Part shown: positions 4,347-54,721 of the stretch, piece by piece
How the letters are laid out: the number at the start of each line of letters is the position of its first letter
How positions within the stretch are numbered: the stretch's first letter is position 1
Origin: Chloroflexota bacterium
GTDB taxonomy: Bacteria; Chloroflexota; Dormibacteria; Dormibacterales; Dormibacteraceae
Length of the DNA stretch: 55,224 nucleotides
Reading direction: 5' to 3'
Assembly (NCBI GenBank): GCA_005881025.1
Contig: VBFO01000007.1
Location: 1 to 55,224, forward strand
Translations under genes and position numbers: made by a program
Notes under the pieces: model-generated
What the model saw: the letters and a program-made list of their open reading frames with translations, nothing else
Databases searched by the model: none
What the model was told of the DNA's origin: nothing

Positions 4347-5153
4347 CTATTGCGCCTGCTCGATAGCTCTTTTCGTCAACACCCTGGCGAGGTGCTTCTT
4401 GTATTCCGGGCTGGCGCGCAGGTCGCCGGCCGGGTTGAGGCCGTCGGATGCGTGCTGCGCCGCCTCCTCGGGCTTGGCGCCCTTCGCGAGCGCGTCCTCC
4501 ACCGCCTTGGCGCGCACCGGCGTCGGGCCGACATTGGTCAGGCCGACCCGCCAGTGACCGTCCACCTTCTGGGCTGCGGCTCCGACGATGGCCCAGTCGA
4601 ACAGGCGACGCCGGAACTTGATGTACTTGTGCGGCCCGTTGGCCACCGGGAACACGACCTCGGTGACTATCTCGTTGGCGGCGAGAGCCGTGGTGAAGAT
4701 GTCCTTGAAGAAATCGCGGGCCGGGATGGTGCGCTTGTTGGTCACGATGTCGGCGTCGAGCATCAGCGCGAGCGTGGGGTAGTCCCCCGCCGCATCGCCG
4801 TGCGCGATCACCCCGCCCATCGTGCCCATGTTGCGGACCTGGTTGTCACCCACCTCGGCTGCGACCTCCGCGAGGATCGGAAGCGATTCCTTGACCGTCT
4901 GCGAGCTATGAATCTGGACGTGCCGGGCGAGCGCTCCGACATGCAGCTTGGAGCCCTTGACCTCGATGTGATCGAGACCCTTGATGCCGTTGATGTCGAC
5001 CAGCGCCTTCGGCTGCGCCAGACGCAGGCGCATGAGCGGGATGAGGCTGTGGCCGCCGGCCAGCACCTTGGCGTCCTCGCCAAGCCTGTCCAGCAGCTTG
5101 ACCGCCTCGTCGACGGAGGAGGCCTTCGCGTATTCGAATGCGGCGGGGATCAC
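4347..5153 (-). CDS. coxM: Xanthine-dehydrogenase-family / CO-dehydrogenase-like medium subunit (FAD-binding)
   Basis: 268-aa ORF. FAD_binding_5 pattern (LAGGHSLIPLMRLRL). CO_deh_flav_C-like C-terminus. 4-nt overlap with the coxL stop. Confidence 0.9.
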   Translation of the reverse strand: MIPAAFEYAKASSVDEAVKLLDRLGEDAKVLAGGHSLIPLMRLRLAQPKALVDINGIKGLDHIEVKGSKLHVGALARHVQIHSSQTVKESLPILAEVAAEVGDNQVRNMGTMGGVIAHGDAAGDYPTLALMLDADIVTNKRTIPARDFFKDIFTTALAANEIVTEVVFPVANGPHKYIKFRRRLFDWAIVGAAAQKVDGHWRVGLTNVGPTPVRAKAVEDALAKGAKPEEAAQHASDGLNPAGDLRASPEYKKHLARVLTKRAIEQAQ

Positions 5154-7507
5154 TTGCGCGCCTCCTTGATCTGATTCCAGAGTCTGTCGGGCGTCGCCGG
5201 CATGTCCACATGCTTGATGCCGAGCGGCGAGACCGCGTCGCAGATCGCATTGATGATCGCGGCGGTGGCGGCGATGGTCCCAGCCTCCCCGATGCCCTTG
5301 ACTCCGAGCTCGTTGGTCGGGCTGGGCGTGATGGTCCGGTCGAGCTGGATGTTCGGGATCTCATTCATGGATGGGATCGTGTAATCGAGGAACGTCGCAG
5401 AGCGCAGCTGGCCATCCTGGTCGTAGACCATCTCCTCGTACAGTGCCTGCCCAATGCTCTGGGCGATGCCGCCATGCAGCTGGCCGTCCACGATCATCGG
5501 GTTGATGATGTTTCCGCAGTCGTCGACCGCGACGTACTTGGTGATCTGCGCGTTACCGGTCTCGGCGTCCACCTCGACGGCGCAGATGTGGGCGCCGAAC
5601 GGCCACACGAAGTTGGGCGGCTCGAAATAAGCCACCGCCTCCAACCCCTGCTCGAGCCCGGCAGGTAGCTGGCCGTACGCCGCGAAGGCAACCTCTCCAA
5701 ACGCCTTCGACTTGTCGGGCGCGCCCTTGACGTGGAACTTGCCCTGGTCGAAGACTATGTCCTCCTCAGCCGCCTCGAGGATGTGGGCCGCGACTTTCTT
5801 GCCCTTCTCGACCACCTTGGCGCAGGCGCGATTGATCGCGACTCCGCCCACCGCCAGCGTGCGGGAACCATAGGTGCCGTAGCCGAAGCCCGGCCCCTCG
5901 TTGGTGTCGCCGTGGCGGATGTCGATCTGTTCGATCGGGACGCCAAGCGCGTCGGCGGCGATCTGAGCGTGAGTCGTGTCGTTGCCCTGGCCGTGGTTGT
6001 GGGTGCCGACATAGATGCTTACCCCGCCGGCCGGGTGGACCTTGACCTGGGCCGACTCGGACAGCACCACGCCGCCGGTCGCCGGTCCGGTGACCGCGCC
6101 GGGCCCCAGGCCGCAGATCTCGATCCAGGTCGAAAGACCGATGCCGACGAGCTTGCCCTGCTTGCGGGCTTCCGCCTGCTCGCGCCGCATCTGGTCGTAG
6201 CCGAACAGCTTCAGCGCCTTGTCGAGGCTGGCGTTGTAATCGCCGGAGTCCATGACCAGCCCGAAGTTCTGCGTGAACGGGAACTCCTCTTTGGCGGGAA
6301 AGTTCTTGCGGCGCAGCTCGACGGGGTCCATCTTCAGCTCGACCGCGAGCAGATCGATCATCCGCTCCGCGACGTGGGTGGCCTCGGGTCGTCCTGCCCC
6401 GCGGTAAGGGTCGGTCGTGATCTTGTTGGTGAGCACGCCGATCGAGCGCGATGAGATGGCCTTCCACTTATAGGCGCCGCCCGCGAGCAGGCAGGCGCAT
6501 GTCTGGAAGGCTCCGAAGGTTCCGATGTAGGCGCCGCAGTCAAGCAGCTGGGTGACGCGCATGCCGAGGAGCGTGCCGTCCTTCTTGGCCGAGGCTTCTA
6601 CGTCATATATCTGTCCGCGGCCGGCGTAGGCGTTCTGCACCGCCTCGGTGCGGGTCTCGGTCCATTTGACAGGTCGCTCGACCAGCTTGGACACCGCCGG
6701 CACGAGGTAGTCCTCGGGGTAGGGGCTGATCTTGGAACCGAAACCGCCGCCGACGTCATGGGAGACGACGCGCACCGAGTGCTCGCCCATCCCCAGCGCG
6801 CCAGACACGAACAGCCGGATCCAGTGCGGGTTCTGCGTGGACATCCACATGGTCAGGCGCTTGTCGAACGGGTCGTACTCCGCCATGACGACTCGGCTCT
6901 CGATCGCGTTCGGCGATAGGCGCCGCTGGAGGATGCGCTGCTTGACCACGACGTCTGCGGTCTTGAAAGCTTCCTCGGTCGCTTCCCACGGAACGTAGGT
7001 CGCGTCCCAGGCGATGTTGTCGGGCTGGTCGGTGTGAGCCTTGGGGCTGCCCGGCTTCATCGCTTCCTCGATCTCCATCACCGCGGGCAGCGGGTCGTAC
7101 TCGACGTCGACAAGCTGGGCTGCGTCCGCAGCCTGGTAGCGCTGCTCGGCCACGACCACCGCGACCGGCTCGCCCTGGTAGCAGACCTCCTCGCGCGCGA
7201 TCGGATAGCGCGGTGGGTTCACCTTCTTGTCAGGAGCGAAAACAGGAGCCACCGGGTGGGTGGCCGGGCCGGCGATGATGTCCTTGAAGTCCTGGGCCGT
7301 GAAGACCCCCAGGACGCCGGGCGACTTCTTGGCCGCCTCGACTCCGATGCTCTTGATCCTCGCGTGCGCATGCGGGCTCCTGACCACCGCCAGATGGACC
7401 AGGCCGGTCCTCGTCAGGTCATCCGTGTAGCGCCCGTGTCCGGTGATGAGTCGCGGATCCTCGCGGCGATGGATCTTGGCTCCGACGAGCTGGGAGACCG
7501 CCATCAC
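5150..7507 (-). CDS. coxL: Molybdopterin-binding large subunit, form-II CoxL-like (xanthine dehydrogenase family)
   Basis: 785-aa ORF with aldehyde-oxidase/xanthine-DH a/b-hammerhead and MoCo domains. The active-site loop reads ...[13 protein letters not shown]..., the AYRGAGR type rather than the AYxCSFR of bona fide form-I CO dehydrogenase. Confidence 0.9.
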
Positions 7508-8138: not shown

Positions 8139-8735
8139 ATGCAACTGGAAAATTCATTCACGGTCACCGCGCCGCCGGAGCGGGTATTCGCGTACCTGCT
8201 GGACGTGAACAAGGTCGTCGGCTGCGTTCCCGGGGCCGAGCTGACGGAGGTCGTCGACGACACGACCTTCAAGGGCAAGGTCAAGATCAAGGTGGGCCCG
8301 ATCACCGTCGCGTACAGCGGAACAGCTCGCATCACCGGCAGGGATGACTCCGGGCACTCGGCCACCCTCGAAGCCGAGGGTAGGGAGACCACGGGCCAGG
8401 GCTCTGCCCGGGCGAAGGCCCTGATGGCGGTGACCGCGGATGGGGACGGCTCGATCGTTCGGATCACCACCGACTACACAGTCGCCGGCCGGGTGGCCCA
8501 GTTCGGCCGCGGAGTGATGGAGGACGTGTCGCGGCGCATCGTCAACGAGATGGCGAGCTGCATCAAAGCCAACGTCGAGGGCGCGAACCGTCCTGCCACG
8601 CCTGCGGCCGGATCAACTGGCCGGCAGGAAGAGCCGCCTCAGCAGGTGACCGCGCCGCCCATCAACGCGGTCTCCCTTTTCTTCCAGGTCCTGTGGACAG
8701 GGATCCGGCGCGCCTTGGGAGGAAGGCCGACCTAG
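8139..8735 (+). CDS. coxG: SRPBCC-fold CoxG-family protein
   Basis: 198-aa ORF. Typical CoxG start MQLENSFTVTAPPERVFAYLLDVNKVVGCVPGAE... Divergent from coxS. Confidence 0.8.
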   Translation: MQLENSFTVTAPPERVFAYLLDVNKVVGCVPGAELTEVVDDTTFKGKVKIKVGPITVAYSGTARITGRDDSGHSATLEAEGRETTGQGSARAKALMAVTADGDGSIVRITTDYTVAGRVAQFGRGVMEDVSRRIVNEMASCIKANVEGANRPATPAAGSTGRQEEPPQQVTAPPINAVSLFFQVLWTGIRRALGGRPT

Positions 8736-17183: not shown

Positions 17184-17287
17184 GATCGTTGCGAACGCGG
17201 GAGCTCGCGAACTTTCGGGGGCTGAGAGGGCGCCGCCGCGCCGACCGCATGAACCTGAACTGGGTAATGCCAGCGGAGGGACGGATC
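17184..17287 (+). promoter_or_regulatory. TPP (THI-box) riboswitch
   Basis: GGGGGCUGAGA (17217-17227) ... GAACCUGAAC-UGGGUAAUGCCAGCG-GAGGGA (17251-17281) matches the conserved TPP aptamer core. It ends 6 nt before the ATG at 17288, and the conserved GGAGGGA doubles as the SD. The 5' boundary is approximate. Confidence 0.85.
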
Positions 17288-18661
17288 ATGGGCGACGTCG
17301 TCGCACCGAGCGGCACCGACTCATTCGGTCAGATCGAACGCCGTGGCGTCGAGGCCATCCCGGCCGCCGAAAGGCATGGCCGTCCGCGTGACCTTGCATT
17401 CCTGTGGGCGGGAGCGTTTGTCAACTACGCGAGCCTTTTCACTGCCAGCCTGCTGACGACCTACTACGGGCTCGGGGTTTGGGATGGGCTCGTCGCCACC
17501 GTGATCGGGACCGTGACGGCTGCTCTGATCCTCGGGCTGCTCAGCAACACGGGCCCTCGTTCCGGACTACCACAGATCATCTTCACCCGCTCGATCTTCG
17601 GGCTGCGGGGTTCATACGCCGGTGCGGCCCTGACCCTGTTCCTCGCCGTTGGATGGTTTGCGGTCGACTGCGTGATCGCGGCGCAGGCCGGCGCACAGCT
17701 CGTCGGTGGAGGCGGACGCGCGCTCACCTTCGGGCTGGTGGTGGTGATCGCGATCGTCAGCGTCGCCGTGGCCGTGTACGGACACCAGACGATCAGCGTC
17801 CTCGAGAGGTACGGCGCGATTGCGTTCGCGGCGCTGTCGGGCGCACTCTTCGTTTTCCTGGCGCCTCAGTTCCACTGGGGCCAGGGACCTACCATCGCGG
17901 GCACTGACTATCCAGGCGCGTTCGTTCTCGGCGCGATGACTTGCTTTGCCCTCGTCGCTTCCTGGTTCCCGTTCGCGAGCGACTATTCGCGTTATCTACC
18001 TGCTTCCAGCGCGGCGCGGTCGGTGTCATTCTGGCCCGCGGCCGGGGTGGTGCTGCCGATGGTCTTGCTGGGCATCTTCGGTCTGCTCCTGCCCACGATC
18101 GACACCGGCCTCGCGGCCCAACAGGGAGTGCTTGCGGTGGTCAGCGCTTACGCCCCGCCATGGGTGGCGGCGCCGTTCTTCGTGTTCGTGGTCCTGGGCG
18201 AGATCTGGGCCAACTATCTGGACGTCTACACCGCCGGCCTCGTCCTGCTGGCCATGGGCGTCAAGCTGCAGAGGTGGCAGAGCGCGCTTGGCTGCGGCAT
18301 CCTGGGCAGCGCCCTGGCCGCATACGCAGTGCTCGTCAGCGACTTCCACATCGCCTACGAGGACTTTTTGATCCTCACGTACCTGTGGGCCCCCGCCTGG
18401 GCGGCGGTGGTGTTGCTGAGCTTCTTCGTATTTGAGCGTCGAGTGCGGCCAGGGGTGGCTGTCGGGGCCTGGTTCGCCGGCACCATCGCCAGCCTGGCCT
18501 TCGTGAACTACGACAACCTCTTCGGCAACATCGTCGCCGGCCCGGCTTTCTTCAACCACGGACTGATCGCGGGGCTGCATGGCGCCGACCTCAGCGGAGT
18601 GGTCAGCGTGGCGGTCGCGGCGCTGAGCTACGCGGCCATGCGGCGCGTGTCCGCGACGTGA
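17288..18661 (+). CDS. cytX: NCS1-family (purine-cytosine permease-like) transporter, probable hydroxymethylpyrimidine transporter
   Basis: About 12-TM protein. N-terminus [33 protein letters not shown] is typical of the cytosine/HMP permease family. It sits behind the TPP riboswitch and overlaps thiD by 4 nt. The 17189 start in the ORF track would read through the riboswitch. Confidence 0.8.
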
Positions 18662-21468: not shown

Positions 21469-22234
21469 GCCTGAGGATCATCCTCCCACAACCGATGGCG
21501 AGCGCCGATTCAAGGTCGGGGTCACCATCCATCCGCAGCAGTGCACCATCACCGAGCTGCGCGATGCGTGGCGGAGAGCCGATGAGCTCGGGGTGGACAG
21601 CATCTGGTTCTGGGACCACTTTTTTCCTCTCTATGGAGACCCCGAAGGCAATCAGTTCGAGTGTTGGTCCCTCCTCGCGGCAGCTGCCATTGACACGCGG
21701 GCGCCGCAGATCGGGCCGATGGTCAGCGCCATCGGCTATCGCAACCCGGACCTGATCGCTTACATGGCAGGGACGATCGACCAGTTGTCGGGCGGACGCT
21801 TCGTGCTGGGGCTGGGCGCCGGATGGTTCGAGCGCGATTACACCGAGTATGGATTTCAGTTCGGAGAGGTTCGCGATCGGCTGCGGACCTTGAAGCAGGC
21901 ATTGCCGAGGATCCGGGCGCGTGTCGACCGGCTGAAGCCGGGGCCCGCGGGGCGGATGCCGATCCTCATCGGCGGTGGCGGCGAGAAGGTCACGCTGCGG
22001 CTGGTGGCAGAGCATGCGCAGATGTGGAACGCGCTCGGCTCGCCAGACGAGTACGCCCGGAAGTCCGAGATCCTCGACGGGTACTGCCGGCAGATCGGGC
22101 GCGATCCGAAGGAGATCGAGCGCACGGCCAACGTCACGCTGCGCTCAGATAGGGAGATCGACGAGTGGCTGGAGGCGGGACTCCAGCATTTCGTGCTGCG
22201 GCGTTCGACACCAAGCAGCTGGAGAAGGTGCTGA
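21461..22234 (+). CDS. LLM-class (luciferase-like) F420-dependent-type oxidoreductase
   Basis: FKVGVTIHPQQ...ELGVDSIWFWDHFFPLYGDP...GRFVLGLGAGWFERDYTEYGF. Start is the TTG at 21461 or the ATG at 21467. The 3' end may be frameshifted (see findings). Confidence 0.8.
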   Translation: MTMPEDHPPTTDGERRFKVGVTIHPQQCTITELRDAWRRADELGVDSIWFWDHFFPLYGDPEGNQFECWSLLAAAAIDTRAPQIGPMVSAIGYRNPDLIAYMAGTIDQLSGGRFVLGLGAGWFERDYTEYGFQFGEVRDRLRTLKQALPRIRARVDRLKPGPAGRMPILIGGGGEKVTLRLVAEHAQMWNALGSPDEYARKSEILDGYCRQIGRDPKEIERTANVTLRSDREIDEWLEAGLQHFVLRRSTPSSWRRC

Positions 22235-22431: not shown

Positions 22432-23791
22432 CTACGCCGCCTTGACCGCGGTAACCAGCTTCGTCAGCGAGTCCTTCGCGTCCCCGAAGAACATGATCGT
22501 TTTCGGGTCGTACATCAGGTCGTTGTCTATGCCTGCAAATCCCGGGCGCATCGACCTCTTCATGAACACGATGTTCTTGGCCTGGTCGGCATTCAGGATC
22601 GGCATGCCATAGATCGGACTGCCCGGCGATGATCGCGCCGCCGGGTTGACAACGTCATTCGCGCCCACCACGAGCACGACGTCTGCGTCCCTGAACTGGT
22701 CGTTGATCTCGTCCATCTCCTTCAGCTGCTCATAGGGCACGTTGGCCTCAGCCAGCAGCACGTTCATGTGCCCCGGCATCCTTCCAGCCACGGGATGGAT
22801 TCTCGAGCAGGTCCGCCAGCTCGCGGACCGCGTGCTGCGCCTGCGCCACCGCCAGCCCATAGCCCGGCACGATGATCACGCGCCGCGAGTAAGCGAGCAA
22901 GGTGGCGAGGTCCTCGGCGGAGCCGGCGCGGACAGAACGCGCCTCTTTTCCGCCCGCGGCGGCCGTGCCTGTCCGCACCTTGCCGAACGCGCCGAACAAC
23001 ACATTGCCGAGGGACCTGCCCATGGCGTCGCTCATGAGCTTGGTCAGCAAGCTACCTGACGCTCCAACCAGGGTCCCCGCGACGATCAGCGCGAAGTTGT
23101 TCAGCGTGAAACCGCTGGCCGCGACCGCAAGGCCGGTGAACGCGTTTAGAAGTGAGATCACCACCGGCATGTCGGCGCCACCAATCGGCAGCACGAACGC
23201 GACGCCAAGGATCAGCGCGAGCACCATCAGCGCGACGAAAGAGAACGGGATCGATGCGATCACCAGCACTGCGACGACAAATCCGATGATCAGCGCCGCG
23301 AGGAGCCCGTTCACCAGTTGCTGGCCCGGATAGGTGATCGGGGTCCCGGTCATCAGCTCCTGCAGCTTGGCGAACGCGACCATGCTGCCCGCGAACGAGA
23401 TCGACCCGATCACGATGCTGAACACGCTCGGGAACGCCTCTGCGAACGGTGGGCGGGTACCGAAAGTCAGCAGCTCTGACACCGCCACCAGCGCCGCCGC
23501 CCCACCGCCCACGCCATTGAACAGGGCGACCATCTGCGGGATCGCGGTCATCTTCACCATCCGCGCTCCAAAGGCTCCGATCAACGCGCCGACGGCGACG
23601 CCTACGCCGATGATCACCAACCCGGCCGTCGTGAAATGCAGCAACGGCAGCGTGGCTCCGAGCGCGATCACCATGCCCGCCGCAGCGGTGAAGTTGCCGT
23701 TCCGGGCGCCCTTCGGCGAGCTCAGCTGCTTGAGGCCGAGGATGAACAGCACCGCGGCCATTAGATAGGCGAGAGCGATCGCGAGATTCAT
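22432..23791 (-). pseudogene. pntB: NAD(P) transhydrogenase subunit beta, reading frame broken by an internal deletion
   Basis: ORF 22748..23791 encodes the TM domain plus ...VIIVPGYGLAVAQAQHAVRELADLLE. ORF 22432..22860 encodes, in another frame, [33 protein letters not shown]...GDAKDSL. The two parts meet at about 22801. Confidence 0.75.
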
Positions 23792-34355: not shown

Positions 34356-34570
34356 ACGCGTTGTATCAAGCACCAGCCGAAGTACAGGTGGAAGGCGTCA
34401 ACCCCTTGCCGGACTCGACGTGGTCCGTACTCCCGCCTGCCGGTGCGGCGGCCTGATCTAAATCCCTGACTCCGCCTGTTGGACGCTTCAAGCGTCAGTT
34501 GCCATCGGATCGGGGGGAATGAGAACCAGATGCCACCCCCCTCGGGGATTTGCGGAGGTCGCCAGCACGA

Positions 34571-34619
34571 CTGACTCTGGATCAGAAGGTTGAAGGTTCG
34601 AATCCTTCCTCCCCAGCCA
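34571..34619 (+). repeat. Partial tRNA-Gln (positions 27-75, anticodon stem to CCA), att-like remnant
   Basis: Exact reverse complement of 36772..36820, the 3' 49 nt of the intact tRNA-Gln. The upstream 26-28 nt cannot form an acceptor or D arm. Confidence 0.85.
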
Positions 34620-36771: not shown

Positions 36772-36846
36772 TGGCTGGGGAGGAAGGATTCGAACCTTCA
36801 ACCTTCTGATCCAGAGTCAGCTGCGCTACCGTTGCGCCACTCCCCA
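36772..36846 (-). tRNA. tRNA-Gln (anticodon CUG)
   Basis: Hand-folded cloverleaf, 75 nt: UGGGGAG-UG-GCGC-AACGGUA-GCGC-A-GCUGA-CUCUGGA-UCAGA-AGGUU-GAAGG-UUCGAAU-CCUUC-CUCCCCA-G-CCA. U1:A72 and G73 are typical of bacterial tRNA-Gln. The CCA is encoded. Confidence 0.9.
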
Positions 36847-42396: not shown

Positions 42397-43533
42397 TTAG
42401 GCGACCGAAAACTTCTCCAGCTTCGCGCCCAGCGCGCCGGCGATGGTCTCGGCGCGCTCGCCTGCGGCCTTGACGACACGGGCCGGCAAAGACGCGAATG
42501 GCTTGAGCTCGACGCGCACCTTCTGTTTGGCGACGGTGTGCGACCAGACGCCCAGCACGCGGCCGTCCACGAGCACGACTGGCGATATCCACCCGGCCAC
42601 GCGGCTTACCTTCCAGCGATGGATCTTGTCGAAGAGGTGGTCGCGAGTTGCATGGCCCATGAGGTAGGGATCGAAGCCGGGCAGAAGCTGCACCGAAGGA
42701 CGCTGTGAGTTTTTTCGCAGGCGCTTCAGGTCCTCGCCGAGCATCTGTGCCTTCTGGCCCTCCACGCTTACGGTGACGACCTTTTCATCGAGAGCCTTCC
42801 AGGCGGCGGTGCCGACGCCAAGCCAGGCGCCCCACCAGCGCGTGAAGTCCTGCTTAGTTGCCGGCCCATAAGCGCTCAAGTACCGTTCCGCGGCCGCCAC
42901 AGTTGCCTTCTCAGGGTCCATCTCCTTCCACGTGCCGAGCCAGGCCTGCGGACGGACGAACGTGACGCTCTGTCCGCGATTGGGACCGAAACAGAGCTGG
43001 CCTCTGCGCGCTGCAGGTTTGAGCACGCCTCCCCAGCCGGACCTGAGGATGCGAAGGACCGGCTCAGGCTGGTCACGTCCGACGGCCGCGATCAGCTCCT
43101 CGCGCGTCATCGGAGAGCCGTTGAGGGCACCGTCGATGCTGTCAAACAGCTTCGTCAGCTGGGCCTCGTTGACCTGCAGGTATTTGAGCCAGGCGTTCAG
43201 GTTCCGCAGGCCGTGAGCTCCCATGGCCGCTGCGAACATCGGCAGGTCTTTCGAGGGAATGAGGTGAAGAGTCCCGCGCATCAGCCAGGTCTTGACCAGC
43301 GACTTCTTCTTCCACAGGGCCTCGCGCACGTCTTCGACCGTGCAGTCGACCCGAACAGCGATCTGCAGCTCGGCGGTGGACATGACCTGCGCCTGGGCGC
43401 CACCGATGTCGCCCACAACCTGGGTCAGCCGTGCTTTGGGTGCACGCTCCAGCAGGTGGTGGCGCGCGAGCCGAAACGAATGCACATCCGCCCAGCTGAG
43501 CTCAGCCGCGGCCGGCGGCTCCTTGATTCTCAA
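42397..43533 (-). CDS. Winged-helix HTH_42 (DUF1006) protein, AlkZ/YcaQ-like crosslink-repair DNA glycosylase family
   Basis: 378 aa. N-terminus ...SFRLARHHLLERAP...VVGDIGGAQAQVMSTAELQIAVRV...SLVKTWLMRGTLHLIP is typical of the family. Confidence 0.75.
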   Translation of the reverse strand: MRIKEPPAAAELSWADVHSFRLARHHLLERAPKARLTQVVGDIGGAQAQVMSTAELQIAVRVDCTVEDVREALWKKKSLVKTWLMRGTLHLIPSKDLPMFAAAMGAHGLRNLNAWLKYLQVNEAQLTKLFDSIDGALNGSPMTREELIAAVGRDQPEPVLRILRSGWGGVLKPAARRGQLCFGPNRGQSVTFVRPQAWLGTWKEMDPEKATVAAAERYLSAYGPATKQDFTRWWGAWLGVGTAAWKALDEKVVTVSVEGQKAQMLGEDLKRLRKNSQRPSVQLLPGFDPYLMGHATRDHLFDKIHRWKVSRVAGWISPVVLVDGRVLGVWSHTVAKQKVRVELKPFASLPARVVKAAGERAETIAGALGAKLEKFSVA

Positions 43534-43552: not shown

Positions 43553-44746
43553 TTACTGCGAGAACAGGGTCACGTCCTTCAGCTCGAAGCTCACGATGCC
43601 GTCGGCGCCGACGACGAACAGATCGACAGGAGCGAACCCACCGGTTTGTGGATATGCCGGGTCTAGCACGCCGATTGCAATTTGCGAGCCGCCCGGCTCG
43701 GCGAACGATCCCCAGTAACCAAAGGTGCTGTCTGGGCACGTCCAGATCGTCTGCCCGTCACTCCAGTTGACGATGCTCGGCGACTGCGCGCCACCGATCT
43801 GGGCCGCGACCACCAGGGCCCCATCCAACGAGAAGCCAAAGACCTCGCCCTCGAGCCGCTTGAGCACCGCTCCGCCAGGCCCGTATATGACGGTGTGGCC
43901 GGATCCGTCCGCCAAGGCGACGTACCTGCCGTCGTGGGATGCGGCGATGTAGCCACCAACTCCACCGGTCCACAACGTTCGACCGCTGGACAGCTGAACG
44001 ACCCAGAACTGCATGACTCCGATGCCCTGGCCGCCCGACTGATACACGACCGCGCGGTCACCGCCTGGGCTGCAAGCGACGACCGACGGCCCGCCGCCGT
44101 CGTGGCTGGCCGGCTTGAAGCTACCTACCCGCGCCACGTTTCTCGGGGATTTGCCCACCTCGGTGAGCTGGAGCTCTCCCGGGCTGCTCATATCGCGTGA
44201 GGCGGTGCGCACCACAGAGCAGTAGCTTCGACCGTCGTCCGACCAGAACACGCCCACATTTATCGGATCGAAGGTGGCCAGCACCGCGCCGTGGCGATCT
44301 CGGATTTCGTTGGAAGCGGCGTACAGAGTGCCTTGCGGGTTGGGGATGCCGCCGTTGGCGGCGCCCGTGCCGATCCTGCCAGATGTCTTGCCGTCCCAGG
44401 TGACGCCGTCGACCTGGTCGAAGTTAGCCGGGTCGTGATAGACGATCACTGGGGTCGAGTCGGAGACGTTCAGCGCGTTCTGGAGCGGAGTCGGTGAGGC
44501 GCTGGCCTTGGGCGTGGTGCCCGGCACCGTCTGGGGATGGATGTTCCCTCGCACCAGCGCGAAGGTGCCGATCACGAGCGCCGCGATCAGGACGGCGGCG
44601 ATGCCTGCGGCCCACTGGACGCGGCGGCTCACCGACTCCCGGGCCGCGAGCCCATCCTGCATGAGACGGTGACGCGCGTCGCCGACCTCACCGAGCTTCG
44701 CTTGCTGCCGGTCGAAGCCGCCACGAATGTCGTCACGGAGAGTCAT
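43553..44746 (-). CDS. Putative anti-sigma / sensor protein: short cytoplasmic N-terminus, one TM segment, extracytoplasmic beta-propeller-like domain
   Basis: Start overlaps the ECF sigma stop (TGATG). TM segment WAAGIAAVLIAALVIGTFALV. The C-terminal 300 or so aa are Gly/Ser/Val-rich with repeated ...DG..VA...G... blades (TolB/WD40-like). Confidence 0.5.
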   Translation of the reverse strand: MTLRDDIRGGFDRQQAKLGEVGDARHRLMQDGLAARESVSRRVQWAAGIAAVLIAALVIGTFALVRGNIHPQTVPGTTPKASASPTPLQNALNVSDSTPVIVYHDPANFDQVDGVTWDGKTSGRIGTGAANGGIPNPQGTLYAASNEIRDRHGAVLATFDPINVGVFWSDDGRSYCSVVRTASRDMSSPGELQLTEVGKSPRNVARVGSFKPASHDGGGPSVVACSPGGDRAVVYQSGGQGIGVMQFWVVQLSSGRTLWTGGVGGYIAASHDGRYVALADGSGHTVIYGPGGAVLKRLEGEVFGFSLDGALVVAAQIGGAQSPSIVNWSDGQTIWTCPDSTFGYWGSFAEPGGSQIAIGVLDPAYPQTGGFAPVDLFVVGADGIVSFELKDVTLFSQ

Positions 44747-45297: not shown

Positions 45298-46587
45298 TCA
45301 GTCGAAGAGCTTGCGGCCCCGGGTCACGAACTGGTCCCGGCGGGGCCCAGTGCCTACGAGCTCGATCGGCGTGGCTATGAGCTCGCCGACCCGTTCGATG
45401 TAGTCGCGGCACTGGGCGGGTAGATCGTCCCAGCACTTGGCGGCTCCGATCTCCGACTGCCACCCTGGCATCTCGTCGTACATCGGCTCGCAGTGCTTGT
45501 AATGGGAGATGTTCGCGAGCGGATGGTCGTGCACCTGGCCACGGAATCGGTAGCCGGTGCAGATCTTCAGGAGCGGCTGGTCGTCGAGTATGTCGAGCCG
45601 CATCAGGGCTGCGACGCTGACGCCGTTAAGGCGGCAGGAGTAGCGAGCGACCGCGGCATCGAACCACCCGATACGTCTTGGGCGCCCGGTGACGGTGCCG
45701 AACTCGTGCCCGCGCTCGCGGATCTGGTCCCCCACGTCGTCGGTGAGCTCGGACGGAAAGGGCCCGTAGCCGACGCGCGACGTGTAGGCCTTGAACACGC
45801 CAATCGTCAGGTCAACCTTGGTCGGAGGGATGCCACTTCCGGTGAGCGCGCCGCCGGCGCTGGGGTTGGAGCTGGTGACGTATGGATAGGTTCCAAAGTC
45901 GAGGTCGAGCATGGTCGCCTGGGCCCCCTCGAGGAGGATGTTGGCCTTCCGGTCCAGCGCTTCCTGGATGAGTGGGAATGTGTCCTTGATGTAGGGGTCG
46001 AGCTGCTTCGCGTACCCCATGTACTCGCCGACCATGCTTTCCCAGTCGTAGGGCTCGCCGCCATAGAGCTTGGTCAGGATCGGGTTCTTGACCTGGTCGA
46101 CCACGAAGGCGAGCTTCTTGCGCATGAAGCCTTCCTTCTGGAGGTCGCCGATGCGAAAGCCGATGCGCCTCACTTTGTCCGCGTAGGCGGGGCCGATTCC
46201 GCGCCAGGTGGTACCGAGGCGGTCGTCGCCGCGGACCTCCTCCTCGAGCTGGTCGAACAGCGGGTGGTAGCGCATGACCATGTGCGCTCGCTCGCTGACG
46301 ATGAGGTTCTTCGGCTCGATTCCGCGCTCGCGCAGCTGCGTGATCTCTTTCAGAAGCACTATCGGGTCGACCACCACGCCGTTGCCGATCACGCATGTGC
46401 ACTGCGGGTAGAGGATCCCCGACGGGATGAGCTGGAACTTGAACTCGCCGTCCTCGGTGATGACGGTGTGCCCGGCGTTGTTGCCGCCCTGGGACCGGAT
46501 GACCATGTCCGCTTTGGCCGCGAGGTAGTCGATGACCTTGCCTTTGCCCTCGTCGCCCCACTGGCCGCCGACCAGGATGATGACCAC
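45298..46587 (-). CDS. purA: Adenylosuccinate synthase
   Basis: MVIILVGGQWGDEGKGKVIDYLA..., GNNAGHTV, TTWRGIGPAY. GTG start with SD agaggaag. Confidence 0.95.
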   Translation of the reverse strand: MVIILVGGQWGDEGKGKVIDYLAAKADMVIRSQGGNNAGHTVITEDGEFKFQLIPSGILYPQCTCVIGNGVVVDPIVLLKEITQLRERGIEPKNLIVSERAHMVMRYHPLFDQLEEEVRGDDRLGTTWRGIGPAYADKVRRIGFRIGDLQKEGFMRKKLAFVVDQVKNPILTKLYGGEPYDWESMVGEYMGYAKQLDPYIKDTFPLIQEALDRKANILLEGAQATMLDLDFGTYPYVTSSNPSAGGALTGSGIPPTKVDLTIGVFKAYTSRVGYGPFPSELTDDVGDQIRERGHEFGTVTGRPRRIGWFDAAVARYSCRLNGVSVAALMRLDILDDQPLLKICTGYRFRGQVHDHPLANISHYKHCEPMYDEMPGWQSEIGAAKCWDDLPAQCRDYIERVGELIATPIELVGTGPRRDQFVTRGRKLFD

Positions 46588-46799
46588 TGGTCTTCCTCTT
46601 ACTCCGTGCCCGGCTCGGGGCGCCTCGTCTCCAGGTTGTAGAAGCGGGTGTGGTCCCGGCGGAACTTGAGCTCGATCATGCCGGTCGGGCCATTGCGGTG
46701 CTTGGCGACGATGACCTCCGCGATGCCAGGCCTCTCATCAGCCTTGTAGTACTCAGGCCTATAAAGAAACATCACGGGATCTGAATCCTGCTCGATGCT

Positions 46800-46832
46800 G
46801 TTGTGGACCACCAAGTCGTTCGCAACGAAGTT
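46800..46832 (-). other. 11-codon C-terminal relic of a second DnaB intein (NFVANDLVVHN)
   Basis: It reads NFVANDLVVHN directly followed by SIEQD. Compare the Synechocystis DnaB mini-intein C-terminus ...HNFVANDIIVHN|SIEQD (from memory). Confidence 0.7.
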
Positions 46833-47329
46833 TCGCGGAGGTCACTCAGGATTGGTCGTTTGTCCGGGCGTTGCTCGGGTGCACGGCTCAGCTGTGAGAT
46901 GGCGATCACAGGGATCCTGAGCTCTCGAGCCAGCCCCTTCAGTGCTCGGGAGATTGATGAGACCTCCTGAACGCGGTTGTCGTCCCCGCGCGAGCGGCCA
47001 TGCATCAGCTGCAAGTAGTCGACCAGGATCATGTCGATGCCGTGTCGCATCTTTGCCTGTCGGGCCTTGAGCTGAAGGGTCAATTCATCCATGACCGGCG
47101 TGTCGTCGATGTAGATCGCAGCCTCGCCAAGCGGCCCGAGCGCATTGGACACACGATCGAACTCGGACTCTGTCAAAAGCCCTCTGTGCAAGCGCTGGGC
47201 GTCGATTTGGGCCTGCTCTGTCAGCAGGCGTTCGGTGAGCTGTTCCTTCGACATCTCGAGGCTGAAGATGGCGATCGACTTCTTCGTTTCAAGTGCGGCA
47301 TGCAGCCCGATGTTGAGAGCGAGAGAAGT

Positions 47330-48549
47330 GTTGTGGACGAGGATGTCCTGCGCCACGAAATTGCCAGTCTCTGGAACCGCGAGGTCATAAACCTGGTGCT
47401 CGCCGGTAGGGATGATCGAAACGACCTCATCCCAATAGATCTGGTCACTGGCTAGCTGCGAAAGGCGGCGGTCGCGCAGGACGTCGGCGTAATTCGCAAG
47501 CCGGCCTTGTGTGATGCCCCGGGACCGATGCGGATTGAAGCCACGAAGACCGGCGCCTCTTTCGCCCGCAAGGACTGAGAGTTGTGTGACGGTCAGGCCG
47601 CGAGCGTGAGCTGACGCGCGAATGTCTTCCCAGATCTGTGGTGGGACTTGACCAATGTTGCTGGGTCGCGGCTCGGTGAATGACTTGAAACGGTTTGCCT
47701 TCTCATCTCCCTTTGGTAGCGCTCAACCGAAGCCGGCTCCGTGATCTCAACTCGCCAGCACCGATCCTTCTTCTTCCACAGCTTCGCGACGATTCCGAAG
47801 CGGACGAGAGCATGGTGAAGGTCTTCCGCGAGACCCTGGGATGCGACCGCGAACTCAATTCGCGGATAGCCACCCAATGAATACACAGTTCCATCGCAGC
47901 TCATGAGGGTCTTGATGAACTCAAGCAATCTCGAACGGTCCCAACGCCAGGCGCACTCGGGAAACCGCTTGGCATCGGACAGCTTGCCCATGAGGCCAAA
48001 TTCGCGCAGCCACTGAGCCAGCGGGTTCTTGAGGCGACCGCCTGTACGTGGCCCGGCAGAGTAGTACGTGATGCGGTGCCGTCTGACGTGAAGAGTCGGA
48101 AAGTGGCGCGAGATTTGGTCCATGAAGTCGCCGACAAGAACTGGATCAGAGTTCGTAAAGCCCGGCGTAGCCGCGGTCAGGCTGCCTTCGGCGATGAAGT
48201 AGGCGAGCAGTCGAACCTGTCCGAAGTCCATTGAACCGTCTGTGCCAAAGCAGTTGACTGCGCGCGGCACCGCGATCCGATCACCAATGACGATGTCGTG
48301 CAGCGGTTGCCATCCTGTAACCGTGAGAAATGGGTGGTGGCCTGTCACTTCGACGGAACGACCGGTGCGCGTCGTGACCTTGAAGCAGGGTTTGACGCCG
48401 CTGTCGACCCATGCGCCGATTTCGTTTGGTTTGATGCGCCCGTCCCAGGAGAAACCGTGGATTCTGGGTAGCTGTCGCTCGACTGCGTCCTGGATTGTCA
48501 GACGCTCGCCCGTGGCAATATTGATAACAAGACTATCATACTTTAGGCA
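47330..48549 (-). mobile_element. DnaB intein with a LAGLIDADG homing-endonuclease domain, inserted in the Walker A loop (GK|T)
   Basis: Block A CLKYDSLVINI, block B VTGHHPF, LAGLIDADG-like LLAYFIAEGSL and FIKTLMSCDGTVY, blocks F/G IYWDEVVSIIPTGEHQVYDLAVPETGNFVAQDILVHN, then Thr. Length is 1220 nt, which is not divisible by 3. Confidence 0.85.
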
Positions 48550-49218
48550 CTTACCCATCGCGGGTCTTCCCGCGACGATGATCAGGTCCGAGTCCTTGAA
48601 CCCGCCCGTCATCCGATCCAGGTCATGGAACCCTGACGGAACGCCGATGACTCCCTGACCGCTCTCCATCTGCAGCGAGATCCGCTCCATCGCCGGACCG
48701 AGCAGGTCATAAAGCTTGGCCAGCTCGCGCTGGTCGCGGTCGTCCGCGACACCGAACACGAGCGACTGCGCCTGGTTGATCGCCTCCTCGGCTTCGACCG
48801 AGTCGTCGTAACCGAACCCGGCGATGTTGCCCCCCGCCGAGATCAGACGCCGCTTGTAAGCCTTCTCCTTGACGATGCGGCCGTAGTACTCGATGTTGGC
48901 CGCGGTCGGGACCGACCCCTGCATCGACGCGAGCTGAGCGCGGCCGCCCACGCGTTCGAGCAAACCCATCCCCTGCAGCTGTGACGCGAGCGTGACGTTG
49001 TCGATCGGCTCTCCGGCCGCGAACAGGTCGAGTGCCGCCCGATAGATCTGGCCGTTGTTCTCGCGATAGAAGTCCTCGGGATGAAGGAACTGGAGGACCT
49101 TGGCAATCGACAGCGGATCGAGAAGGATGGACCCGAGCACGGACATCTCCGCGTCAAGGTCGTGCGGTGGCACCCTTCCGGGTGTTAGTGCGATGGTCGC
49201 CATCGAGCTCTGTCGGCC

Positions 49219-49668
49219 CTAGCGGTCCTGGGTCACGATCAGGTTGACGTGGGCGGTCACATCCCGATGAAGCTTGAGTGGAACCTGGTGCTCACCAAGG
49301 GTCTTGATGGGTTCCCTGATGTCGATCTTGTGCCGGTCGATGTCGACCCGGTGCTGGGCCTTGAGGGCGACGGCCACATCCTGGTTGGTGATGGAGCCGA
49401 ACGCCTTGTCCTCGGCTCCGATCTTCAGACGAACAACAACCGTCTTGTTGCCGATCTCGTCCGCCAGCGCCTGAGCCTCCACCCTGTCCTTCGTCTCGCG
49501 TCGGCTCACAGCCTCGCGCAGACGCTTGGACTCGGTTTCGACACCCCGAAGCGCCGGCACCGCCAGCTTGCGCGGAAACAGGAAGTTGCGACCATAGCCG
49601 TCGGCGACCTCCTTGATGTCACCGGCCTTGCCGACGTTGTCTATGTCCTTGGTCAGCATCACGCGCAC
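49219..49668 (-). CDS. rplI: 50S ribosomal protein L9
   Basis: The GTG at 49668 gives MRVMLTKDIDNVGKAGDIKEVADGYGRNFLFPRKLA... Conserved rplI-dnaB synteny. Confidence 0.9.
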   Translation of the reverse strand: MRVMLTKDIDNVGKAGDIKEVADGYGRNFLFPRKLAVPALRGVETESKRLREAVSRRETKDRVEAQALADEIGNKTVVVRLKIGAEDKAFGSITNQDVAVALKAQHRVDIDRHKIDIREPIKTLGEHQVPLKLHRDVTAHVNLIVTQDR

Positions 49669-53080: not shown

Positions 53081-54721
53081 GTGAGCGAGCTCAGCTACGT
53101 GCAGGGCGCCAGCAACGTTCCACTGGTCGGCGAGCCGATCTTCCACAACCTCCGTCGGACCGCCGCCAGGTTCGGTGATCGCGATGCGCTGGTCGTCCCG
53201 CCCCAGGACTACCGGGCCACCTACAGCCAGCTGGTCGAGCAGTGCGAGGCCGCCGGCCGCGGGCTGATGGCTCGTGGCGTCAAGAAAGGGGACCGGGTCG
53301 GTATCTGGTCGCCGAATCGCTACGAGTGGGTTGTCGTCCAGTACGCCACCGCAGCGATCGGCGCAATCCTGGTCAACATCAACCCGGCCTACCGGACCTC
53401 TGAGCTCGAGTACGCCTTGAACCAGTCCGGGACCGGCTTCCTGATCCTGGCCAAAGGCTTCCGGCAGGCCGACTACCGGGCAATGCTCGCGGAGGTCAAA
53501 GGCCGCTGCCCGGACCTCAAGGAAGCCCTTGTGCTCGAGGACAGTTGGGATGCGCTGCTGCGTGATGCCGCCAGGTCAAGCCTGGAGGAGCTTCGCGAGC
53601 GAGAGGAGTCGCTTCAGTTCGACGATCCGATCAACATCCAGTACACATCAGGCACGACCGGCTTCCCAAAGGGCGCGACGCTGACGCACCACAACATCCT
53701 CAACAACGCCTTCTTTATCGGGGAGACGCTCAAGTACTCCGAGCGGGATCGCGTTTGCATCCCGGTTCCGTTCTATCACTGCTTCGGCATGGTGCTGGGC
53801 AACCTCGCGTGCACGTCACACGGCGCGGCGATGGTGATCCCGGGCGAGGCCTATGACCCGCTGGCGGTCATGGAGACGGTGCAGAAGGAGCGCTGCACTT
53901 CGCTGTATGGCGTGCCGACCATGTTCATCGGTGAGCTGGAGCACCCCCGATTCAAAGAGTTCGACTTCACCTCGCTGCGCACCGGCATCATGGCCGGCTC
54001 GCCTTGCCCGGTGGAGGTCATGAAGAAGGTGCAGACGGTCATGCACATTCCAGAGATGACGATCGCCTACGGGATGACAGAGACATCGCCGGTGTCGACT
54101 CAGTGCGCCACCGATGATCCACTCGAGAAGCGGGTCTCGACCGTCGGGCGTGTGCATCCTCACGTGGAGATCAAGATCGTCGACCCGGCCACCGGAGCGG
54201 TGGTTCCGCGCGGCACGCCGGGTGAGCTCTGCAGCCGTGGCTACATGGTCATGCTCGGCTACTGGAACAACGAGGAAGCCACCCGTCAAGCAATCGATGC
54301 CGCACGCTGGATGCACACGGGCGATCTGGCCACGATGGACGAGGACGGTTACCTCAACATCGTCGGCCGGATCAAGGACATGATCATTCGCGGGGGCGAG
54401 AACATCTATCCGCGCGAGGTCGAGGAGTTCTTGTACGGGCATCCGCAGATCGCGGACGTGCAGGTGATCGGCATCCCTTCGGAGAAATACGGCGAAGAGG
54501 TCATGGCTTGGGTGAAGCTGCGCGAGGGCGGCAGCGTGTCAGGCGACGAGCTCGCGACCTGGTGCAAGGGCAAGATCGCGAGCTACAAGATCCCTCGGCA
54601 CTGGAAGTTCGTGGATGGATTTCCCATGACCGTCACGGGCAAGATCCAGAAATTCAAGATGCGCGAGGTTTCGATCGAGGAGCTGGGGCTGGAGAAGGCA
54701 GCAGGGGTCCGGACGGCGTAA
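53081..54721 (+). CDS. AMP-dependent synthetase/ligase (acyl-CoA synthetase)
   Basis: AMP-binding signature [20 protein letters not shown]. ...[38 protein letters not shown]..., ...[13 protein letters not shown] start with SD ggaggtg. Confidence 0.9.

Follow-up and report, generated by a model that had tools for sequence, protein, structure and literature searches.

The window, meaning the whole 55,224-nt stretch of DNA analysed here, which is a complete NCBI contig, carries a dnaB gene on its minus strand (49203..46599, delimited by three-frame translation and Pfam matches), with rplI (49668..49219) as its upstream neighbour and purA (46587..45298) downstream. This rplI-dnaB-purA arrangement is a conserved locus, the same one that houses the single dnaB of relatives. 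A search of the window for another dnaB, or for a relocated N-terminal half of the intein, found none. In a codon-usage gene map of the contig, the middle piece of dnaB was the only piece flagged, and indel noise along the whole contig was not seen, though comparison with other contigs brought out a split pntB and two small private deletions.

Reading in the direction of transcription, the N-extein (48550..49203, minus strand; Pfam DnaB and DnaB_C) comprises the N-terminal domain, the linker, and the start of the ATPase domain as far as the P-loop residues GRPAMGK. It is followed by an intein inserted at the P-loop (47330..48549, minus strand; Pfam Intein_splicing and LAGLIDADG_3), which contains a LAGLIDADG endonuclease domain and has the boundaries GK|CLKYDSL...AQDILVHN|TSLALN; its length is 1220 nt in the window versus 1233 nt (411 aa) in intact alleles. 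Next come the middle extein, TSLALN...PILSDLRE (46832..47329, minus strand), and an intein remnant, NFVANDLVVHN (46800..46832, minus strand), which represents the last 11 codons of a 133-aa class-1 mini-intein and has the A of the final Glu codon in common with the middle extein. The C-extein, SIEQDSDPVMF...PEPGTE (46599..46799, minus strand; Pfam), contributes 66 aa and the stop codon.

Three-frame translation distributes these pieces over three reading frames with two premature stops. The N-extein and the opening portion of the P-loop intein lie in frame A, which runs into a stop at 47595..47593. The closing portion of the same intein (...NFVAQDILVHN|TSLALN) is read in frame B, together with the middle extein as far as LSDLRE, and this frame terminates at 46774..46772. 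Frame C opens with NFVANDLVVHN and continues through SIEQDSDPVMF... to the natural stop at 46601..46599. The two lesions responsible shift the frame in the same direction. No single frame of the window gives a full-length match to the DnaB model TIGR00665, the matching residues being split over all three, whereas the intact DnaB of the same species scores 512 bits against it (cut-off 385).

At the H4 site, LSDLRE occupies 46849..46832 on the minus strand (E codon 46834-46832), and the remnant, one frame off, is followed by SIEQD. The last A of the Glu codon and the next 32 nt (46831..46800) read AAC TTC GTT GCG AAC GAC TTG GTG GTC CAC AAC, and the same frame runs on through SIEQDSDPVMFLYRPEYY... 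to the natural stop; the remnant therefore shares its frame with the C-extein but not with the upstream part of the gene. The premature TGA that closes the middle-extein frame (46772..46774, minus strand) lies 58 nt past the junction. In the Pfam DnaB_C profile, the upstream piece extends to position 198 and the downstream piece begins at 194, and the host protein lacks only the residues SG at the break.

Base-by-base alignment to an intact allele shows that 373 nt, dnaB positions 2385-2757, are missing at a junction between 46832 and 46833 on the minus strand (window 46833 corresponds to position 8384, and 46832 to 8758, of the intact contig L081). The loss begins with the third base of the Glu codon, takes in both codons for Ser-Gly, and extends over 122 codons from the start of the mini-intein, Cys1 and RATANH among them. 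In blastn comparisons with related genomes, the alignment breaks exactly between 46833 and 46832. The junction sequence, CGCGA|AACTTCGTT, contains no N run and at most 1 nt of microhomology, and no copy of the deleted mini-intein DNA lies elsewhere in the window.

What does remain of the intein can be assigned with precision. All 33 nt are identical to the 3′ end of the intact 133-aa intein in contig MNDY01000236.1, which rules out a chance resemblance. The remnant sits exactly between LSDLRE and SIEQD, at the conserved host site, and retains the C-terminal His-Asn with the nucleophile at position +1 (...VVHN|S). The N-terminal splicing region (blocks A and B, with Cys1 and the TxxH motif) is absent from the window, and no single open reading frame (ORF) passes through N-extein, intein, and C-extein, the frame shifting at 46833/46832 and closing at 46774..46772. 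Nor does the arrangement resemble a naturally split intein, in which separate ORFs with their own starts would each encode half of the Hint fold. Much of the first-pass annotation survives this scrutiny: three-frame translation reproduces its coordinates, its 32-nt reading at 46800-46834, and its upstream-frame stop at 46772, and alignment to the intact allele bears out that SG and the N-terminal splicing domain are gone and the frame is shifted. Its reading of the 11 codons as the terminal, block-G part of a DnaB intein inserted in motif H4 at RESG|S likewise holds, since the same-species allele ends ...KLHNFVANDLVVHN|SIEQD and the 33 identical nt fall within the region of that allele recognised by NCBIfam TIGR01443.

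The allele that serves as reference is found on MNDY01000236.1 (L081/L083), which is 99.3%–99.5% identical to the window over 14 kb. It encodes OLB94448.1 (P0124), a 996-aa DnaB with both inteins, made up of extein segments of 218, 168, and 66 residues, a P-loop intein of 411 aa, and a mini-intein of 133 aa (CLAGDTLIYLPD...KLHNFVANDLVVHN) inserted at RESG|S. The mini-intein matches the N-terminal NCBIfam model TIGR01445 over residues 1-77 and the C-terminal model TIGR01443 over residues 112-133, the remnant being the last 11 residues of the latter region. It also matches the solved DnaB mini-inteins of Npu (4O1R, E = 7e-42) and Ssp (1MI8, E = 4e-32).

Comparison with close relatives, as the first-pass annotation had proposed, finds the complete mini-intein at RESG|S: several other assemblies from the same population have flanks 99.3%–99.9% identical to those of the window and an intact 133-aa element. 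Seven contigs of the population are intact across the left junction, and five of these span the whole mini-intein (MNDY01000236.1, L082, L095, L096, and L097); coverage stops at dnaB position 2779 in L103 and at 2738 in L104. The broken gene, by comparison, is unique. Its 536-aa and 71-aa products occur in one contig only among about 15 billion proteins, and a degenerate pattern for the H4 junction gave 0 matches in JGI metagenome contigs. The 536-aa N-terminal product shares a 90% identity cluster with full-length DnaB proteins.

A second lesion, a private 13-nt deletion within the P-loop intein, is absent from the first-pass annotation; it breaks dnaB about 880 nt before the H4 site. Its junction lies at 47704..47705 on the minus strand (CGGTTGGATTGGC, codons for IGWIG), after dnaB position 1499, with the sequence GGGAGAT|GAGAAGG, and it is this deletion that carries the upstream frame into the stop at 47595..47593. 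The earlier expectation that the H4 lesion truncates DnaB by about 66 residues is thus right as to the frame break and wrong in treating it as the sole defect, the gene being already broken upstream. Eight independent contigs are intact at dnaB position 1500.

The 13-nt deletion falls at a switch between haplotypes. A SNP-dense block (47712-48014; 23 mostly synonymous SNPs in 300 nt) stops 6 nt short of the junction, beyond which 550 nt are free of SNPs. The SNP-dense haplotype (B) is real, because the MEGAHIT contig L085 carries it too; L085 is the sole contig found with the B haplotype and ends at dnaB position 1356. A 27-mer of this haplotype taken from beside the deletion gave 0 matches in the search for the junction elsewhere, and therefore no independent contig of that haplotype spans the 13-nt site. 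More broadly, SNPs relative to a 99.4%-identical sibling contig cluster strongly in the P-loop intein (47712-48616) and in purA (45681-46411), and 55 of the 56 differences between L096 and L081 lie within the P-loop intein. On these comparisons the P-loop intein is the variable part of an otherwise near-clonal locus, and the clustering of SNPs suggests either exchange of intein alleles between strains or mosaic assembly.

The exteins, by contrast with the frame, are pristine. At the columns that do not vary among 16 relatives, their 450 residues include 0 private replacements; for most relatives the figure is 0-3, the exceptions being the divergent L011 and the partial L001. The N-extein protein is identical to that of OLB94448.1, its five differences from L081 at the DNA level all being synonymous, and the middle extein differs by one synonymous SNP. 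Six of the seven extein SNPs relative to L081 are silent; the seventh changes Leu to Pro at 46777, a variant also present in the JGI contig L096, whose intein is intact. The flanks carry ordinary haplotypes (2064T, as in L082 and L097, and 2813C, as in L096), and the excess of private non-conservative changes that would mark a decaying pseudogene is not seen.

Other assemblies of the population falter in the same gene. At least 10 independent contigs end inside dnaB (at positions 797, 1040, 1062, 1133, 1194, 1356, 1366, 2199, 2738, and 2779), and raw scaffolds carry N gaps within it. Of these ends, 2738 and 2779 fall on either side of the deletion's right edge (2757, for the 373-nt lesion), each within about 20 nt. 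No independent contig was found to end exactly at the left edge (2384/2385), where the only irregularity is a private 1-nt deletion at dnaB 2369 in the MEGAHIT contig L095, 16 nt away. Another MEGAHIT contig, L103, has a private 1-nt deletion at dnaB 346, beside an N gap (297-328) in the raw scaffold L104. In the GTDB representative L010 (VBJE01000128.1), the region 4769-6300 is a chimeric dnaB in which intein-free and intein-bearing alleles are mixed: first comes a P-loop and extein segment free of any intein, next the middle of the P-loop intein, then N runs, after which that extein segment is repeated.

Larger private deletions occur in these assemblies as well. VBGX01000108.1 (L082/L092) has deletions of 111, 91, and about 82 nt, none with an N run, corresponding to window positions 48053-48162, 43199-43289, and 44621-44702. 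The 111-nt deletion, which is in frame and falls in the endonuclease domain of the P-loop intein, coincides exactly with an N gap in L084 and with the end of L087; the other two lie in two neighbouring genes. MNDY01000236.1 itself contains a 131-nt frameshifting deletion in an AMP-binding acyl-CoA synthetase gene (window 54019-54149) whose full 546 aa are preserved in the window and in five further contigs (L082 and L084-L087). Deletion-biased mutation is normal in bacteria, and the private deletions of the sibling contigs could in principle be real strain differences.

The window also shows a direct join outside dnaB. At 22202 it reads GCTGCGG|CGTTCGAC, where the raw scaffold L098 has GCTGCGG-N10-TGGCCAAGC-CGTTCGAC, that is, a 10-N gap and 9 further bases that the window lacks, which indicates that the contig contains joins without N runs at scaffold gaps. 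It likewise lacks 21 nt at 22800 relative to L098, in a stretch of L098 that holds a C6 run (G6 on the coding strand). In the same region the transhydrogenase gene pntB is split into two overlapping ORFs on the minus strand (22432..22767 and 22748..23791), covering positions 2-330 and 350-455 of the Pfam PNTB profile; the split recurs in the independent raw scaffold L098 (7099-8479).

Taken at face value, three reading frames and two premature stops would befit an old and slowly decaying dnaB pseudogene, a reading to which we give almost no credence: it is refuted by exteins free of private replacements at invariant columns and by a DNA identity of 99.3%–99.5% to the intact allele, with differences that are almost all synonymous. 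Only marginally less improbable is a functional arrangement, in which separate pieces are joined by trans-splicing, as in split inteins, or the ribosome undergoes programmed -1 frameshifting at both sites. The common direction of the two frame shifts and a TTG that could serve as start for the C-terminal piece at 46814 might speak for it. However, LSDLRE is not followed by any N-terminal fragment of an intein, a stretch of 11 residues cannot make up a Hint fold, and potential start codons (ATG, GTG, or TTG) are absent from the middle frame between 47722 and 47356 (366 nt). Inspection by eye reveals no slippery heptamer at either junction, and compared with an intact allele whose flanks are about 99% identical, each lesion is simply a deletion, so that the anatomy of the gene effectively refutes this proposal. 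Mutation of recent date is a more serious contender, albeit an unlikely one: a single strain would have undergone an imprecise 373-nt deletion of the mini-intein together with a real 13-nt deletion, leaving a dead dnaB allele. The fuller version of it, a soil Dormibacterota strain in which both deletions are real, dnaB is freshly killed, and 33 nt are left behind out of frame, is a shade more doubtful again. Loss of an intein is held to require precision, as the host protein is otherwise destroyed (PMC1654191, PMC6195587); if imprecise loss kills the host protein, then failed attempts should be expected at low frequency, and this might be one. A junction with no N run and at most 1 nt of microhomology is possible for deletions arising by end joining or slippage, and the flanks are those of ordinary strains. 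Against this, dnaB stands at its conserved locus with no second copy in the window, a pseudogene that the cell tolerates is unlikely to have two independent frameshifts and no other decay, the many further assemblies of the population contain neither lesion, and those same assemblies show many similar private deletions at positions of gaps or breaks. A dead allele would, moreover, be tolerable only with another replicative helicase, with several chromosome copies, or if the DNA derived from non-viable cells or relics.

The explanation that we favour, at a probability of roughly three in four, is that a scaffold-join or curation artefact at a strain-variable intein produced both lesions. They are private to one assembly while others of the population are intact, the exteins are undecayed, and sibling assemblies break or gap around dnaB; for these reasons a fault in the deposited record, arising from a local join or re-assembly error, appears to fit better than mutation. 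The first-pass description of an imprecise intein deletion caught in the act is correspondingly weakened, given that the lesion is unique to one contig, is accompanied by a second private frameshift, lies among undecayed exteins, and has counterparts in the private deletions of siblings. In the living organism, dnaB would most likely contain two complete inteins, the 411-aa P-loop endonuclease intein and the 133-aa H4 mini-intein, both of which would be spliced out to give a normal 452-aa helicase. Assembly of a strain-mixed soil metagenome would then have dropped 373 nt from the H4 intein and 13 nt from the P-loop intein, probably through the joining or 're-assembly', with no N run inserted, of contig pieces that ended at strain-variable branch points. 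On this view the 33-nt remnant would simply be the start of the downstream contig piece, and the 'relic' is most likely not a biological feature at all.

Contigs built from de Bruijn graphs normally hold only k-mers present in the reads, and an artefact of this kind therefore requires a scaffolding or curation step. A shortcut in the assembly graph between the two inteins of dnaB was considered and rejected, as the sequence words common to their C-terminal ends are only 8-9 nt long. The sibling scaffolds stem from a study that relied on IDBA-UD for assembly, after which 'scaffolding errors' in the bins were corrected and genes were called anew with Prodigal (PMC6784897); the correcting script fixes local errors or substitutes Ns (PMC5220378). 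The dnaB lesions resemble the local scaffolding errors of IDBA-UD and their correction by ra2.py (PMC5220378, PMC6784897) in being private, in lacking N runs, and in part, as at the right edge of the 373-nt deletion, in falling near places where sibling scaffolds have N gaps or ends. That the window itself went through IDBA-UD and this correction we infer from its near-identity to the sibling scaffolds and from the presence of its first-start ORF products in nr, and the step that made the joins would presumably lie within the same pipeline.

The underlying biology is of an ordinary and known kind, namely a DnaB whose P-loop contains an endonuclease intein and whose motif H4 contains a mini-intein, both polymorphic across Dormibacterota. 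The Npu and Ssp DnaB mini-inteins (4O1R, 1MI8, 6FRE/G/H) occupy the same RESG|S site in motif H4 and, like the intact same-species intein, are of class 1 (Cys1...HN|Ser+1). The latter aligns with 4O1R from end to end, terminating in ...LHNFVANDLVVHN where 4O1R has ...LHNFVANNIIVHN. The solved proteins, engineered or natural, are complete splicing domains, whereas the window keeps only the last 11 of 133 residues, out of frame. DnaB of Mycobacterium smegmatis also has two inteins at the same sites, DnaBi1 at the P-loop and DnaBi2 at H4, the sites being named 'b' and 'a', respectively (PMC6195587). In that species the endonuclease belongs to the H4 intein, and the one in the P-loop is a mini-intein of class 3 (PMC6195587); the distribution is reversed here, with a P-loop intein that has a LAGLIDADG domain and a Cys start and an H4 intein that is a mini-intein.

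Protein searches returned Dormibacterota DnaB proteins 85%–94% identical to that of the window, which fall into three groups at the H4 site: a clean RESGSIEQD junction, RESGAIEQD, and RESG|C...HN|SIEQD, in which the insert measures 133-170 residues. Representatives of GTDB species, at about 80% DNA identity and with the same gene order, have no intein, the P-loop intein only (409 aa), or the H4 intein only (427-429 aa). This last form contains a large insert at its centre that corresponds in size and position to a homing-endonuclease domain, and it ends LHNFVAGNVIxHN|SIEQD. Related Dormibacterota genomes display the empty, mini, and large-insert H4 states predicted by the homing cycle (Gogarten and Hilario 2006, PMC1654191). 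Loss in that cycle is precise and proceeds through recombination with an empty allele (PMC1654191), whereas the deletion in the window is imprecise, frameshifting, and probably not biological.

If the deletion were nevertheless real, it would show directly, as is rarely possible, why essential genes retain their inteins, imprecise loss destroying the host gene, and would constitute a natural case of the failed intein loss that theory calls lethal. It would also mean that the cell has a helicase in reserve, that its chromosome is present in several copies and heterozygous, or that dead cells contributed much of the DNA. The artefact reading has a more practical bearing: inteins that vary among co-existing strains break metagenome assemblies, and clean deletions free of Ns can mimic pseudogenes. 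A frameshifted essential gene in a metagenome-assembled genome should hence be verified against sibling assemblies or reads before it is interpreted.

Some further observations concern the H4 site in other proteins and the remainder of the window. About a quarter of related intein-free DnaB proteins read RESGAIEQD or RESGALEQD (P0005, P0007, P0009, and others). An intein at the H4 site needs Ser as the +1 nucleophile, and Ala in its place might leave the site unusable by the intein. Three proteins (P0060, P0090, and P0107, of source 'SRC') have odd junctions, RESGCLEQDSD, RESGAIAGDTP, and RESGCLEQDSPVHLPD, in which extein and intein residues are mixed; they are likely chimeras of protein-level assembly and were left out of the evidence. 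Elsewhere in the window, a pair of tRNA-Gln(CTG) genes, separated by about 2.2 kb, occupies opposite strands, at 34543-34619 (plus strand), which scores barely above the Rfam threshold, and at 36772-36846 (minus strand). A TPP riboswitch at 17187-17300 (plus strand) lies upstream of a 470-aa ORF, whose homologue in L098 is annotated as belonging to the Transp_cyt_pur family.
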